Assembly: GCA_965218795.1 (NCBI GenBank)
Contig: OZ244653.1
Span: 4,256,001-4,320,000, forward strand
Direction of reading: 5' to 3'
DNA from: a bacterium
Lineage (GTDB): Bacteria > UBA8248 > JACPRG01 > G963555815
Length of the DNA stretch: 64,000 nt
Position 1 is the stretch's first letter. Every line of letters begins with the position of its first letter. Below, piece by piece: positions 1,475 through 8,098 of this stretch. Below the pieces are notes generated by a model, which had not been told where the DNA came from, made no database searches, and was given only the letters and a program-made list of their open reading frames with translations. The position numbers and the translations under genes are program-made.

Positions 1475-2110
1475 ATGCCGAACATCACAATGCTGGACAT
1501 CGAGGACCTGGAGAGCACAAAGCTCGGGCCTTTTATCAAGAAGAGTCTCAAGCACCGTGCTCCCGACCCGGCTTTTCACGCGATGATGGGCCACAACATC
1601 GAGCTGACCCAGGCGATGTTCATCGCCTGGGGGACCGTCTTCAATACCGGGAAGATCGACCACAAGCTGAAAGAGATCATTCGCGTGCAGTTGTCCCGAA
1701 TGGTCGATTGTAATTACTGAGGCAACGTCCGGTCCGCTTCGGCGAAGCGGCAGGGGCTGACGGAAGAGATCATCGATGAGGGAATTGAAAACTACGAGAA
1801 GAGCGATCGATTCACCGAGGCCGAAAAACTCGCCCTGCGCTACAGCGAGTGGATGGGCGACGACCCGGGAAAGATCGATGCCGCCTTCTACGAAGCGCTG
1901 AGGAAGCATTACACCGAAGAGGAAATCGTCGAGCTGGGGGTCTTCATCGGCTTCAACGTCGGCTACCACACCTTCTTCGGGACCCTCAAATTTTATCCCA
2001 TGTTCGACAAGGAGGGGAACCTGGTCAGTCAGGAGGAGTCCGCACGGGTGTACGGATGTCGGCCCGTTTCGCATCTGAAACAGCCGGAAGAAGCGGCCCC
2101 CGTCGCCTGA
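1475..2110 (+). CDS. AhpD/carboxymuconolactone decarboxylase-like selenoprotein, CxxU motif (C79-N-Y-U82), 211 aa
   Basis: ORFs 1448-1720 and 1853-2110 share a frame and are separated only by TGA 1718-1720. Read-through gives DHKLKEIIRVQLSRMVDCNY-U-GNVRSASAKRQGLTEE...FTEAEKLALRY...LRKHYTEEEIVELG, colinear with the downstream paralogue. SECIS-like hairpin follows the TGA. Confidence 0.85.
1718..1762 (+). promoter_or_regulatory. Bacterial SECIS-like element downstream of in-frame UGA
   Basis: Perfect 7-bp stem CCGCTTC(1734-1740)/GAAGCGG(1744-1750) with GGC loop 20 nt after the UGA; lower stem CGTC(1726-1729)/GACG(1759-1762). Confidence 0.75.
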
Positions 2111-2142
2111 TTTGTCCTGACTTCGCTCGAGGAGTGAGCCTG

Positions 2143-2745
2143 TTGCCTCATATCGATCCCGTCCGCCCGGAGGATGTCCGGGACCCCGGTTTCTCCGAGA
2201 TTCGCAAAACCTGCGAAGAGCTTCAGGTGCCGGATGACCTCTTTCTGGGCATCCTCGGTCACGTGCCCGGATATGCAAAAGCGTTGACGGATGCCATGAT
2301 CGAATCGCATGCGAAGGGGAACGTCGACCACAAGCTGAAGGAGATCATCCGTGTCCGGCTCGCAAGAACGGCCCAGGATACGTATTTCGCCAATCTCCGA
2401 TCGCGCGAGGCGCAGGCCGAAGGTCTGACGGAGGAGAGGGTCGAGGCGGGGTCGGGGGATTTCGAGAACGATACCCGATTCACCGAGGCCGAAAAACTCG
2501 CGCTGCGGTATGCGGACTGGATGTATCGTGGTGACCCGAAGAAGCTGGACGCCGCCTTCTATGACGAGATGAAAAAGCATTTCACCGAAGCGCAGATCAT
2601 GGAACTGGGCTCCTTCATCGCCCTTCATTACGGGATGCAGGTGTTTATGCGCACGCTTCGGGCCTTCCCCGCGCGCGACCGCGAGGGGAACCCGGTCGAT
2701 CAGAACCAATCAGAAAAAATCTACGGCTCCGAAGCCGGGCGGTAA
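2143..2745 (+). CDS. AhpD/CMD-like paralogue lacking the redox motif (DTYF in place of CxxU), about 200 aa
   Basis: GAGGAG RBS 2129-2134, TTG start giving MPHIDPVRPED (cf. MPNITMLDIED); shares DHKLKEIIRV, GLTEE, RFTEAEKLALRY, DAAFY, ELG, EGN with the upstream gene. Confidence 0.85.
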   Translation: MPHIDPVRPEDVRDPGFSEIRKTCEELQVPDDLFLGILGHVPGYAKALTDAMIESHAKGNVDHKLKEIIRVRLARTAQDTYFANLRSREAQAEGLTEERVEAGSGDFENDTRFTEAEKLALRYADWMYRGDPKKLDAAFYDEMKKHFTEAQIMELGSFIALHYGMQVFMRTLRAFPARDREGNPVDQNQSEKIYGSEAGR

Positions 2746-2921: not shown

Positions 2922-3524
2922 ATGGCGGAAGAGACAAAAATTCATGTGCCGGGCGGAGAGGGAAGGGCGTTCGAAGCCAAGGCCGGGCAGGTCGTTGCCG
3001 TGGTGAATCTGGAGGGAAAACAGGTCGCGGACTTCTGGGCGTTCAACGCAAAGAATTTCGATGAGCCCCTCGGTGCCAACCATACGGTGGTCCACATTGG
3101 AAGACTGTTCCCCCAAGTGGGGGATGAGCTGCTGACCGATATGCGGAACCCGATCCTGGAAGTGACGCGGGACGATTGCGGACGCCACGACATGATGATC
3201 GCCGCGTGCGACATTCGACGCTATGAAATCTACTACAACGTCTCGGGCCACCGGAACTGCATAGACAACGCCCTGGAGGCCCTCGCCTCCAGGGCGGTCG
3301 AGCGCCGCCAGCTGGCCCAGCCGATCAACCTGTTTCAACACATGGGTTACGGCGACGACGGGAGCCTGGAGTTCCGCGAATCTCTCGCCCAGCCGGGCGA
3401 CCGGATCGTATTCCGGGCCTTGATGGACGTGGTCGGTTGCGTGTCCGCGTGTCCGATGGATCTGAACCCGATCTCCGGAGGCAGGATCACGGATCTGGAA
3501 ATCCTGATCTCGGATTCCGCGTAA
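2922..3524 (+). CDS. DUF1989 / urea-carboxylase-associated family protein
   Basis: AAGGAGG RBS; motifs EGKQVADFWAFN, GRHDMMIAAC, HRNCIDN, PINLF, PGD...RALMD...SACP. Confidence 0.85.
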   Translation: MAEETKIHVPGGEGRAFEAKAGQVVAVVNLEGKQVADFWAFNAKNFDEPLGANHTVVHIGRLFPQVGDELLTDMRNPILEVTRDDCGRHDMMIAACDIRRYEIYYNVSGHRNCIDNALEALASRAVERRQLAQPINLFQHMGYGDDGSLEFRESLAQPGDRIVFRALMDVVGCVSACPMDLNPISGGRITDLEILISDSA

Positions 3525-3918: not shown

Positions 3919-4665
3919 TTACCGGCAAATGCGTCCTCCGTTCACCAGGTAGGTTTGACCGGTGATGAAGCCGGCCTCGCCGGAGACCAGGAAGGCAACG
4001 AGGCTTGCGACGTCCTCGGGCTGTCCGAACCGGTCCATCGGGGTCTCGGCTGCAACGGCCTCCTGAACTTCGGGTCTGAGAAACCTGCCGTCGCCGATGC
4101 CCGTCGCGGTCGCTCCGGGACAGACGCAGTTCACGCGAATCTCCGGGCCCAGATCGTGCGCCAGCCATTGGGTCATGGATATTCGCCCGCTTGCCGAGAT
4201 GTGGTAGGGGAGGGTTTGGTATTTCGGTTTGAAGGCCAGCTCCGATCCGGTGATGACGATCACGCCTCCGCCCGCTTGCCGCATTCGCGGAACCGCCTCC
4301 CGCGTGCAGTAGAAATGGCTCTTCAGGTTGACGGCCAGAATCTGGTCCCACAACTCGTCGGTGATGTCCTCCAGCTTTGGAGCGGGGATTGCGATCCCTG
4401 CATTGTTCACCAAGATGGAGAGGGGGCCAAGGGCAGCGTCCACCTCCCGGAAGAGGGATTCCACCTCATCTTTTCGGGAGACATCCCCCCCGACCGCAAC
4501 CGCGCGGACGCCAAGCTCTTCAGCCTTTCGTGCGCCCGCTTCCGCCCGTTGCCGACCCGTCTTGTAGTGAAAGGCCACGTCGTGCCCGTTACGGGCGAGT
4601 TTCAACCCGATGGCCTGGCCGATACCGCCGCTCGCCCCCGTCACCAGGGCGACCTTTCGCTCCAT
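3919..4665 (-). CDS. Short-chain dehydrogenase/reductase (FabG-like fold), atypical active site YxxxA
   Basis: TGASGGIG, NNAG, RVNCVCPG, ITGQ motifs; catalytic helix reads PYHISASG. Confidence 0.9.
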   Translation of the reverse strand: MERKVALVTGASGGIGQAIGLKLARNGHDVAFHYKTGRQRAEAGARKAEELGVRAVAVGGDVSRKDEVESLFREVDAALGPLSILVNNAGIAIPAPKLEDITDELWDQILAVNLKSHFYCTREAVPRMRQAGGGVIVITGSELAFKPKYQTLPYHISASGRISMTQWLAHDLGPEIRVNCVCPGATATGIGDGRFLRPEVQEAVAAETPMDRFGQPEDVASLVAFLVSGEAGFITGQTYLVNGGRICR

Positions 4666-4773: not shown

Positions 4774-5913
4774 TCAATCGGCCTTGTTGCGGAGGAAGGT
4801 GGGCGTGTCCAGTTCGTCCTCTTCGTAAGCCTGATAGGCGAGGGACCCGCTGGTCGGCAGGTGCACGCCCGATGGGTTCCGCGTACGAATGTGCGTGGGG
4901 ATTTCCAGATCCTGCTGGACCACGGACTTGAGAACCGGCTCGCCGGCCTTCTTCTCGCCGAATCCCGTCGCGATGACGGTCACCCGGACCTCCCCCTGCA
5001 TGCCCTCGTCGAGAACGGCTCCGAACATGATGTTGGCGTCGTCGTGGGACGCATCGTAAATGAGCTGGGCGGCCTCGTGGATTTCGTGAAGGGTGATGTC
5101 CTCGCCGCCGGTGACGTTGAAGAGAATCCCGCGTGCGCCCTCGATGGAAGCCTCCTCCAGGAGCTGACTGGAGATGGCCTGCTGGGTGGCCTCGACGGCC
5201 CGGTTCTCCCCGGTGGCTTCGCCGGTCCCCATCAAGGCCATGCCCATATCGGCCATAATGGTCTTGACGTCGGCGAAGTCCAGGTTGATCAGTCCGGGCT
5301 TGATCACCAGGTTGGAGATCCCCTCCACGGCTTGGCGCAGGACATCATTGGCCAGGGCGAACGCCTCGGCCATCTTGGTGGTGCGCACCACGGCGTTCAT
5401 CAGCCGCTGGTTGGGAATGGTGATGACGGTGTCGCACGCCTCCTTGAGCTCCGCCAAGCCGTCATCAGCCTGCGAAAGGCGCTTCTTGCCTTCAAAGACG
5501 AAAGGTTTGGTCACGACGCCGACTGTCAGCGCGCCGCAATCCCGCGCGATGGACGCGATGACCGGAGCCGCGCCCGTCCCCGTTCCGCCGCCCATGCCGG
5601 CCGTGATGAAGACCATGTCGGTATCCACCATGAGCTCGGAGATTCGTTCGGAGTCCTCCAAGGCGGATTTTCGGCCCACCTCGGGATTGGCGCCGGTTCC
5701 GAGTCCCTTGGTGAGCTTGGCTCCGAGCTGGAGTTTGGTGGATGCGGCGGAATAGTCCAAGGCTTGCAGATCCGTGTTGGCTGCGATGAATTCGACCCCG
5801 TCGACATTGGCTGAGATCATGGCATTGACCGCGTTTCCCCCGGCCCCGCCCACGCCGAAGACCTTCAACCGTGCACCGATGTTTCTTTCTTCGCCTAGTT
5901 CAAACAACATCAT
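4774..5913 (-). CDS. ftsZ: Cell division protein FtsZ
   Basis: [18 protein letters not shown] tubulin signature, INLDFADV, C-terminal LDTPTFLR. Alternative GTG start at 5964. Confidence 0.98.
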
Positions 5914-5960
5914 TGGTTGGCTCCCTGCATTGAGTTTATCTTCTCCACTCTCCTGCGGTT

Positions 5961-7202
5961 TCACTGAAACACCCTTGCCAACACCGATTTCACCTGTTGG
6001 ACGACATCCCCCAGACTTCCAGCGTGACCGTTGCCTCCCTGCCAGGAGGAACGGACCTTCTCGTTGAGACCGTATAAGAGGAGACCGATACCCGTGGCGT
6101 GAATCGGACTCCGCACCATTTGGACCAGGCCGCCGCCGACCCCTTCGGGGATTCCCCGACGGACCGGGATGCCGATGACCTCTTCGGCCGATTCCGGCAT
6201 GCCTTCGAGCAGCGTCGCCCCCCCCGTAATGACAATCCCCGATGCAATCACCTCGTCATATCCGCTCTTTTGGATCTCCCGCCGGACCACGCGGAAAAGC
6301 TCCTCCACGCGCGGCTCGATGATCTCGCACAGAACGCGGCGGGAGAGGATGCGGGGCTCGCGCCCGCCGATGCTGGGCACTTCGATGGTTTCATTCCGGT
6401 CCACGAGGCCCGCCTTGGCGCAGCCATACCGCCGCTTGATCCGCTCCGCCTCCCGCGTCGGCGTCCGGAGACCGACGGCCAGGTCCTTGGTGATGTGATC
6501 GCCTCCTACCGGGATGACCGAGGTATGCTGGATGGAATGGTCGTAAAAAGTGGCCAAGTCCGTCGTTCCACCGCCGATATCCACCAGTGCCACCCCAAGC
6601 TCGCGCTCGTCGTCGGTCAAACAGGCAAAGGATGACGCCAGCTGCTCCAGGATCAGCGATTTCGTCCGCAGGCCCGCTTGCTCCACGCTCCGGGTCAGGT
6701 TCTTGGCGGCCGTCACCGAACCCGTCACGATATGGGCCTTCCCTTCCAGACGTACGCCCGAGATCCCGAGCGGGTCCTGAATCCCGTCCTGGTTGTCCAC
6801 CACATAGCTCTGGGGAAGTACGTGAAGGAGCTGCTGATCCGGGGGCAGGTTGACCGCCTGCGCGGCCTCCAGAACGCGGGCCACGTCATCTTCGCAGACC
6901 TCCGAATTCCGCACCGCCACCGTCCCGTGACTGTTGAAGCTCCGGATGTGTCCCCCGGCGATGCCCACGTACACTTCGCCTACGGGGACATTCGCCATGA
7001 GTTGGGCTTCACCGACGGCGGCGACAATCGAGTCGACGGTCTGCTCGATATTGACGACGACGCCTTTCCGAAGCCCCTGGGAAGGGTGGATCCCCACGCC
7101 CAGGATGTCCAGCAGGCCGTCTTCCCCTCGTTCGGAGATCAGGGCGCACGTCTTGGTCGTCCCGATGTCAAGCGCGACGATGTATTCTCCCTTTCGGCTC
7201 AT
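5961..7202 (-). CDS. ftsA: Cell division protein FtsA
   Basis: [34 protein letters not shown]; directly upstream of ftsZ. Confidence 0.97.
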
Positions 7203-7228
7203 CTTGATCCCTCTCGCTGGCCGATGGA

Positions 7229-8098
7229 TTATCGAACCACCGCCCGGCTCCCCATGGACAAGTCCACTTCCCCCGGCCACGATTTTCCATTCCAATGCCG
7301 GAACAGGGCCGAAAACCGTCTCAACCCTTCATCTAATTTCCGCGGGTCGAGGCGAAGCCAGACCGACTGCCCCTGCGGGCCCAGAACGTCCATCGAGATC
7401 CTCTGTCGCGCCGGAAAATCCTTCAGACGGACCGCCGCCAACCGGATCTTGCCTTTTCGGTTTGCCGGCCATAGCGTCCGGAAGGTGCTGACGGCGGCCA
7501 GCCCCGCCTGGAGTTGCTCTCCGGACAGGGCCTGACCGATTTTCAGTTTTCGCGACGCCCGTTTCGGCGCGATCTCGCGCAAGACGGGAAATCTTTGCGG
7601 ACCCGCGCCCACTTCGCCCAGAATCACCCCCTCGCCGTCCACGATGTAGCGGATCTTCCCGCCCAGGGGAATGACGGCGGCCGAGGGCCTTCTTTCCACC
7701 ACCTCGACGATCAACGTGTCGGGCAGGTCGCGGGAAAGCGAGGCGGACCGCACCCAGGGGTGGCTCTCGATTTTCTCTCGCAAGACGTCCAGATCGATCG
7801 CCAACAGGTTGTCGGAAGACTTGAGGCCCAAACGAGCCTTCACGACAGACCGCGTCAAGTGGCTGACCCCCGTAACGGTCACGCTTCTCACTCTGAAGTA
7901 AGGCGAAGTGAGCGACCAACGGTAGAAGGCGTCGGTCCCGAAGTAGAGGAGCAGGAGGATGGCCGCATACATGCCCAAGCGAGTCCAACGCCTCCTCCGT
8001 CCGGCAGAGGCATCCTTCCCCAATTCGGCCGTTCGGCCTTTTGTCGCCCGGCGGCTTCGCGGCGGAGCAACCGGAGTCGCCATCACCTGTGTCCCCAT
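7229..8098 (-). CDS. ftsQ: Cell division protein FtsQ/DivIB
   Basis: Single TM followed by POTRA (PWVRSASLSRDLPDTLIVEVVER); position before ftsA. Confidence 0.9.
   Translation of the reverse strand: MGTQVMATPVAPPRSRRATKGRTAELGKDASAGRRRRWTRLGMYAAILLLLYFGTDAFYRWSLTSPYFRVRSVTVTGVSHLTRSVVKARLGLKSSDNLLAIDLDVLREKIESHPWVRSASLSRDLPDTLIVEVVERRPSAAVIPLGGKIRYIVDGEGVILGEVGAGPQRFPVLREIAPKRASRKLKIGQALSGEQLQAGLAAVSTFRTLWPANRKGKIRLAAVRLKDFPARQRISMDVLGPQGQSVWLRLDPRKLDEGLRRFSALFRHWNGKSWPGEVDLSMGSRAVVR

Follow-up and report, generated by a model that had tools for sequence, protein, structure and literature searches.

In AhpD, the second cysteine of the CxxC motif is the one that attacks AhpC, and AhpD-like proteins that carry selenocysteine (Sec) were reportedly found in marine metagenomes in a Sargasso Sea study of 2005. 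Two families of such selenoproteins, both with a CxxU motif, appear in Table 2 of the Global Ocean Sampling (GOS) survey: AhpD-like 1 (COG2128; 299 sequences, 902 cysteine homologues) and AhpD-like 2 (pfam02627; 70 sequences, 207 cysteine homologues). The same survey places a Prx-like 1 gene beside AhpD-like 2 on one GOS read (PMC2398784; repeated in a 2026 review, PMC13188914). The AhpD relay comprises Glu118, Cys130, His132, Cys133 and His137 in Mycobacterium tuberculosis and Glu36, Cys48, Tyr50, Cys51 and His55 in PA0269 of Pseudomonas aeruginosa, and members of the AhpD-like family form hexamers, trimers and dimers (PMC3141380). Fused bacterial AhpD-like dimers with one cysteine-less pseudo-domain have been described, as analogues of Sestrins, from C. 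ureicelerivorans and Comamonas aquatica, and Sestrins combine a redox SESN-A domain with a non-redox SESN-C domain, their defining feature being an electronegative DDYDY hinge (PMC11429811, from 2024). Here we analyze a pair of adjacent genes, a putative AhpD-like selenoprotein gene (gene 1) and a cysteine-less paralogue (gene 2), at positions 1475 to 2745 of a 64,000-nucleotide (nt) stretch of bacterial DNA (GTDB lineage UBA8248; contig OZ244653.1, positions 4,256,001 to 4,320,000), referred to below as the window.

AhpD-like selenoproteins and AhpD dimers with a pseudo-module are thus already known (PMC2398784, PMC11429811), and the statement in a preliminary description of this DNA that no such system had been described was too strong. 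What is new, in the literature searched, is the fixed two-gene pairing of a Sec AhpD-like protein with a conserved cysteine-less partner. We found no paper on a separate partner gene of this kind in the accessible parts of that literature, and the GOS papers, as far as their text was accessible, mention neither a cysteine-less neighbouring paralogue nor a fusion with one. We think it probable that the two products work together as a unit, and most likely as a hetero-oligomer with the AhpD/carboxymuconolactone decarboxylase (CMD) fold that would join a Sec subunit to a non-redox partner. The elements of the locus are as follows.

1475 to 2110, plus strand: gene 1, predicted from translation, Pfam and orthologues to encode an AhpD/CMD-fold selenoprotein of 211 residues with Sec at codon 82.
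1709 to 1720, plus strand: redox motif C79-N-Y-U82, in which the in-frame TGA at 1718-1720 (codon 82) is taken as selenocysteine.
1734 to 1750, plus strand: hairpin CCGCUUC-GGC-GAAGCGG resembling a selenocysteine insertion sequence (SECIS), with 7 base pairs, starting 13 nt past the UGA.
2111 to 2142, plus strand: spacer of 32 nt, which holds AGGAG at 2130-2134, 8 nt 5' of the TTG of gene 2.
2143 to 2745, plus strand: gene 2, a paralogue of 200 residues without the redox residues (from its translation, structure model and selection).
2377 to 2388, plus strand: D79-T-Y-F82, where the redox site of gene 2 once was; this remodelled motif is recognized by its conservation across gene 2 sequences.

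Gene 1 extends from an ATG at 1475 to a TGA at 2108-2110 (211 codons) and gene 2 from a TTG at 2143 to a TAA at 2743-2745 (200 codons), the latter without internal stops. Their products are identical at 83 of 196 residues (42%; BLASTP, E 4e-55) and have in common DHKLKEIIRV, GLTEE, RFTEAEKLALRY and the tail P-x-x-D-x-E-G-N-x-V. The preliminary description, which had reported a paralogue beginning 32 nt past the Sec gene with its own ribosome-binding site, these blocks retained and CNYU replaced by DTYF, was accurate on each of these points. Read through the TGA, gene 1 has the motif D-C79-N-Y-U82-G-N-V-R86-S, and both genes have Arg86 four residues past the second redox position. This Arg aligns with the His of the P. 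aeruginosa AhpD chains (7xw1, 2ijc), so the classic AhpD His is missing, as had been observed before. By alignment, the PA0269 relay, and with it that of M. tuberculosis AhpD, maps with an offset of 31 to E67, C79, Y81, U82 and R86 of gene 1, which keeps the relay save for Arg86 instead of the 'invariant' His and Sec instead of the second Cys, while gene 2 keeps E67, Y81 and R86 and has D79 and F82 in place of the redox residues. Judging from its translation, the gene 2 product cannot form a disulfide or a selenenylsulfide. Against the CMD family of Pfam (PF02627, gathering cut-off 23), gene 1 scores 37.1 bits and gene 2 a slightly sub-threshold 20.9 bits. Neither gene attains the cut-off of any NCBIfam model; NF053654 ('YciW-related (seleno)protein', cut-off 310) matches best, with 61.5 bits for gene 1 and 44.5 bits for gene 2, and TIGR01926 (peroxidase-related) gives 30.6 bits against a cut-off of 81.8.

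The two genes are adjacent far beyond chance. When the window's own genome and 60 relatives (61 in all) were searched with gene 2, 39 proved to have a full-length orthologue that is free of stops and 50-100% identical, and in all 39 a gene-1-like frame with one TGA lies closely upstream on the same strand. In each of the 30 loci that were re-extracted, C-N-Y-U-G-N-V-R-S lies upstream and gene 2 carries D-[TP]-Y-F; the genes are 2-42 nt apart, save for one locus with a gap of 227 nt and another in which they overlap by 10 nt. A census of gene 2 (alignment scan, one genome per species, best 80 of 184 relatives) recovered gene 1 with its TGA directly upstream in 78 of 78 usable loci, two of the 80 being cut by a contig end. 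A census of gene 1, chosen independently of gene 2 by a DNA scan for the TGA and the hairpin, yielded at least 120 stretches; 80 were examined, three of these were cut by contig ends, and gene 2 adjoins gene 1 in 76 of the 77 usable loci. The preliminary description had made its proposal depend on a D-x-Y-F paralogue being conserved beside the CxxU gene in other genomes, and these three samples bear it out in every lineage examined. The spacer in relatives is mostly -1 to 42 nt.

Carriers of the pair, going by the labels of their sequences, belong to Nitrospinota, which hold the nearest relatives of the window's pair, and to Tectomicrobia, Alpha- and Betaproteobacteria, Acidimicrobiia, Acidobacteriota and SAR324; cultured ones are Rhodoplanes tepidamans DSM 9987 and Polynucleobacter kasalickyi VK13. 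The family is small, with 34 members at E <= 1e-30 in a profile search of 1.84 billion representatives. Some loci depart from the usual form. On one contig (L158/L159), gene 1 and gene 2 are followed by a second copy of gene 1, 1290 nt after the first, and gene 2 has D-S-Y-S in place of D-x-Y-F. In L177 (534-1053, minus strand), the match to gene 2 is split in two with an overlap, suggesting either a frameshift or faulty assembly. Two further loci (L128 and L167) hold the pair with Burkholderiales-type sequences, and the labels of these metagenome-assembled genomes, Bordetella parapertussis and Klebsiella pneumoniae, look doubtful.

In ten relatives the two genes are fused: nine database clusters (P0016, P0017, P0019, P0036, P0047, P0062, P0064, P0125 and P0126) and one SAR324 locus (L111), a single frame of 426 codons that includes Sec82. 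Gene callers restart after a Sec codon, and the fused entries begin just past it, continuing through what remains of gene 1 and a linker of ~50-70 residues into the whole gene 2 domain. Seven of them, of 319-343 residues and with G-D-[PSTA]-[YC]-F in the gene 2 domain, were among the 120 gene 2 matches listed, and two more, of 352 and 371 residues, came from a second search; the additional search for fused entries returned only P0125 and P0126. No full-length fused entry was found in the database, an absence that is weak because the search needs shared short words. The genes are separate in the window and in 77 of 78 loci of the gene 2 census. Such natural fusions support the view that the two products may form a physical, or at least a functional, unit. 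Like the pair, Sestrins and the fused bacterial dimers have two AhpD-like modules, one redox-competent and one without cysteines, and the ten fused relatives show exactly the architecture of a fused dimer with a pseudo-domain. In the window, by contrast, the modules are two genes, the active one uses Sec, and the DDYDY hinge of Sestrins does not occur in the gene 2 translation.

A quick IQ-TREE analysis with 49 sequences of either gene (every third of 132 distinct pairs plus five named ones) split the two sets by one branch with an SH-like approximate likelihood ratio (SH-aLRT) support of 100. This single split indicates that both genes stem from one duplication that predates their spread over phyla. 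Pairwise distances of gene 1 and gene 2 are correlated across the 132 pairs (Pearson 0.88, Spearman 0.77), which speaks for co-inheritance and not for co-adaptation, since related sequences share history. Gene 2 evolves faster, with a mean p-distance of 0.44 vs 0.32 for gene 1.

Gene 2 is under purifying selection. Using the Nei-Gojobori method on 74 loci, we obtained median ratios of nonsynonymous to synonymous substitution (dN/dS) of 0.158 for gene 2 and 0.079 for gene 1 at dS 0.05-0.3 (78 pairs) and of 0.167 and 0.140, respectively, at dS 0.3-0.7 (226 pairs). Neutral evolution of gene 2, which the preliminary description had named as a result that would speak against it, is thus not what was found, and its remark that the frame shows no decay was right: the frame is intact in 157 loci. 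Gene 1 orthologues are 56-86% identical in 158 loci, and mean column identity in 23 orthologues each is 75% for gene 1 and 64% for gene 2. Among 133 gene 2 sequences, the former redox site is conserved at D79 (98%), Y81 (99%), F82 (96%), L85 (93%), R86 (100%) and S87 (99%), and the D-x-Y-F motif was parsed in 121 of the 132 gene 2 members of distinct pairs. A joint alignment shows H63, K66, E67, R70, Y81, R86, S87, A90, G94 and E97 kept in both paralogues and fixed differences between gene 1 and gene 2 at G39/A39, S74/A74, C79/D79, U82/F82 and V85/L85.

An AlphaFold2 model of gene 2 (predicted local distance difference test, pLDDT, 88.9; predicted template modelling score, pTM, 0.87) is all-helical, as are the AhpD and PA0269 structures of M. 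tuberculosis and P. aeruginosa (1knc, 1gu9, 2o4d, 2ijc, 7xw1). Foldseek listed 16 matches with E <= 0.001, all of them AhpD/CMD-type chains. The best were Bmp8 (6ohi, 6ohj; E 6.5e-5, template modelling (TM) score 0.67-0.71) and P. aeruginosa PA0269/AhpD; the 'peroxidase-related' chains 2prr, 2oyo and 2pfx and the Deinococcus radiodurans AhpD 6k40 also matched well, and M. tuberculosis AhpD was a weak match (TM 0.33-0.48). Bmp8, which we take from its PDB titles to be a debrominase, also matches gene 1 in sequence (E 8.6e-6). Both are full-length AhpD-like proteins of ~190 residues, and identity is ~20%. Nothing found for the pair points to halogenated substrates like those of Bmp8.

The gene 1 TGA very likely encodes selenocysteine. 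It occupies the same codon, within C-x-Y-U-G-N-V-R-S, in all 132 distinct gene pairs, with the protein conserved on both sides, and the genome of the window, a single contig of 5.17 Mb, has selA (566 bits), selB (387 bits), selD (319 bits) and a tRNA-Sec (72 bits; ARAGORN anticodon tca). In 75 loci with 55 distinct sequences, each of the seven pairs of the hairpin is kept in at least 53 of the 55, and pair 2 is C-G in 40, U-A in 15 and broken in none, a difference that combines a synonymous change in a Ser codon with an Arg/Gln replacement. The stretch G-N-V-R-S-A-S-A-K is invariant in gene 1, and gene 2 varies at positions 88, 89 and 91; this invariance past the Sec codon fits an RNA constraint that may be laid over the coding sequence. 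Gene 1 shares with the GOS AhpD-like selenoproteins the CMD/AhpD domain, the CxxU motif with Sec second and a hairpin past the UGA. Those families have many cysteine homologues; in contrast, no cysteine form of gene 1 was seen among the 132 pairs or 16 database matches, an absence made weak by the search's need for shared short words. Nine of the 16 matches are the fused entries cut at the UGA, five are full-length with W and two are odd frames. The five (P0127-P0131) are stored as C-x-Y-W-G-N-V-R-S, and their Trp at the Sec codon is evidently an annotation artefact of a code with TGA as Trp.

Other TGA-containing frames accompany this one. The selD gene of the same genome (5147448-5148413, minus strand, outside the window) has its own in-frame TGA and is thus of the Sec type. 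Also outside the window, an AhpD-like frame with one TGA, which shares 27% identity with gene 2, lies at 1018138-1018539 on the plus strand. Up to 16 AhpD-like TGA-frame matches occur per genome in relatives, which marks this lineage as rich in AhpD-like selenoproteins.

Clustering of the neighbourhoods found no gene besides the pair conserved across phyla, and neighbours follow lineage, with an aminotransferase III gene in 29 Nitrospinota-type loci and a CoA-transferase III gene in eight loci, mostly of Rhodospirillales. In Proteobacteria, the gene directly 5' of the pair encodes a thioredoxin (PF00085, 85.5 bits) in 22 of 80 loci of the gene 1 census and eight of 80 of the gene 2 census. An AhpC/TSA gene (PF00578, 69.8 bits) with an in-frame TGA in the motif H-W-U-P-Y-C, which as read is a UxxC peroxiredoxin-like selenoprotein, adjoins the pair in six of 80 loci, with two further strong matches (L081, 2976-3455 on the plus strand, and L091, L105, L112, L116, L121, L171 and L181; all Burkholderiales-type). 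This arrangement resembles the Prx-like/AhpD-like neighbourhood of the GOS read. The preliminary description had doubted that the chemistry is AhpC reduction; the thioredoxin and Sec-peroxiredoxin neighbours in Proteobacteria point toward, and not away from, a possible peroxiredoxin-linked thiol/selenol relay. No ahpC lies beside the pair in the window, and the two peroxiredoxin-like frames with TGA in its genome are away from the pair.

For the pair, the analysis shows the layout of the genes, the signals for Sec recoding, the conserved pairing, purifying selection, one duplication, the fusions and the gene 2 fold; we infer that the products bind each other, in what ratio they do so, which way electrons flow and what the substrate is. 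The assembly could, on the model of AhpD-like hexamers, be a dimer or a trimer of alpha/beta dimers. Gene 1 (alpha) would be its sole redox centre, with a selenenylsulfide/selenol couple at C79-x-x-U82 in which Sec82 would take the place of the attacking cysteine of AhpD. Gene 2 (beta), in which one ancient duplication would have been followed by the replacement of Cys by Asp and of Sec by Phe, retains the rest of the pocket frame (H63, E67, R70, Y81, R86 and S87). It may serve as a non-redox partner that binds the substrate or a partner protein, or that shapes the assembly. Electrons would pass from thioredoxin to alpha, whose acceptor would be either a peroxiredoxin-like protein or an oxidised small substrate. 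A bolder version, rather unlikely in our estimate, would make the pair an obligate alpha/beta selenoenzyme in which the D-x-Y-F pocket (with E67, H63 and R86) and the Sec site jointly take a substrate foreign to ordinary AhpD; it would depend on selenium, no cysteine version surviving, and would be a bacterial two-gene forerunner of the Sestrin design of a redox and a ligand-binding module, and a family in which Cys could not stand in for Sec.

Several observations weigh against the hetero-oligomer. Gene 1 stands without gene 2 in one locus, L147 (thioredoxin, gene 1, zinc alcohol dehydrogenase-like gene), and two related genomes that hold no pair, G003 and G025, have solo Sec relatives that are 53% identical to gene 1, with C-S-Y-U-[KS]-N-V-R-S and without the C-terminal tail. 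The three locus samples share genomes and kinship, and their counts are not independent events. The preliminary description had relied on AhpD/CMD folds acting as oligomers with active sites near subunit interfaces; the oligomers stand but the interface does not, as the accessible text of PMC3141380 describes the AhpD-like catalytic motif as independent of oligomeric state and accessible in each subunit, so the fold needs no partner. Conservation at what was the active site of gene 2 nearly equals that of the gene 1 site, and a ligand site or an activity of its own therefore fits at least as well as a scaffold. A thioredoxin or peroxiredoxin gene adjoins the pair in none of 30 Nitrospinota loci, the window included, so that the proposed redox chain is extrapolated from Proteobacteria. 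Finally, signs of expression are weak: each of two metatranscriptome runs gave one contig of ~200 nt within gene 2, and a contig from a run tentatively taken as RNA spans the junction of gene 1 and gene 2, where DNA carry-over may account for such contigs and the parts they leave uncovered are uninformative. Some of this would also suit separate homo-oligomers acting in sequence in one pathway, with gene 2 as a non-redox CMD-fold enzyme or binding protein and gene 1 as the redox step, a possibility that we hold to be unlikely but serious. Residues D79, Y81, F82, E67, H63 and R86, 96-100% conserved, could form a site of gene 2's own; the fold allows non-thiol chemistry, as in carboxymuconolactone decarboxylase, and the structure nearest to gene 2 is the debrominase; consecutive enzymes of a pathway also become fused, and solo relatives of gene 1 exist. 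However, one duplication of a self-associating fold usually leaves paralogues capable of co-assembly, the spacer is very short or a 1-nt overlap in many loci, and the absence of any other gene conserved around the pair across phyla leaves no mark of a pathway.

Gene 2 could instead be a regulator or guardian, a redox-inert decoy that caps the selenol, limits its over-oxidation or gates the access of thioredoxin. Its kept pocket frame, the loss of both redox residues, the obligate pairing and the fusions would all be compatible with such a role, for which there is no specific support; the ~1:1 arrangement, short spacer and fusion suit a stoichiometric subunit better, and we regard the idea as improbable. 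Hardly credible is that gene 2 is a duplicate in decay or under neutral evolution, or that the TGA is a true stop and gene 1 broken. The sub-threshold CMD score of gene 2 could be read in this way. So could the hairpin, in which covariation is limited to a single pair, whose single-sequence fold is not stabler than that of shuffled sequences (z 0.29) and which has no match at E <= 10 among the families of Rfam, including those of SECIS elements; the case for it is made by conservation and one compensatory pair. Against both stand a gene 2 dN/dS of ~0.16 with the frame intact in 157 loci, the invariant position of the TGA, the compensatory change and the full Sec machinery, and a decaying gene 2 is ruled out by its dN/dS. 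Gene 2 as a cysteine back-up copy is likewise ruled out, as the preliminary description had maintained, with Cys at neither position. The hetero-oligomer of a Sec subunit and a non-redox partner thus remains the reading that we favour.

Bacterial selenoproteins are usually catalogued gene by gene, and gene callers truncate gene 1 at the UGA; for these reasons the partner has been overlooked or labelled 'alkylhydroperoxidase family enzyme', a name that misfits a protein apparently incapable of thiol chemistry. Gene 1 and gene 2 each merit a family model of their own. The pair would offer a testable case of the passage from homomer to heteromer after duplication and a counterpart in bacteria of the two-module build of Sestrins, and a subfamily in which no cysteine form was seen is a suitable place to ask why certain sites require selenium. 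The cultured carriers bring the pair within experimental reach.

Around the pair, the window contains further features. The non-coding region 5' of gene 1 has a direct repeat of 57 nt (791-847 and 1044-1100), whose copies, 253 nt apart, are 95% identical and may represent a small repeated element. A scan for promoters and terminators gave nothing above shuffled controls. Downstream lie a DUF1989 gene (2922-3524, plus strand; 167.5 bits) and a short-chain dehydrogenase/reductase gene (3919-4665, minus strand). A DUF1989 homologue is also found in G003, divergent beside the solo Sec relative of gene 1 (L252, 247-924, minus strand), and the presence of DUF1989 next to both may be a family-level link or plain synteny. 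Three open reading frames on the minus strand, 4774-5964, 5961-7295 and 7229-8098, resemble FtsZ, FtsA and FtsQ by translation alone, and, if these readings are right, the pair would sit just past the end of a cell-division cluster.

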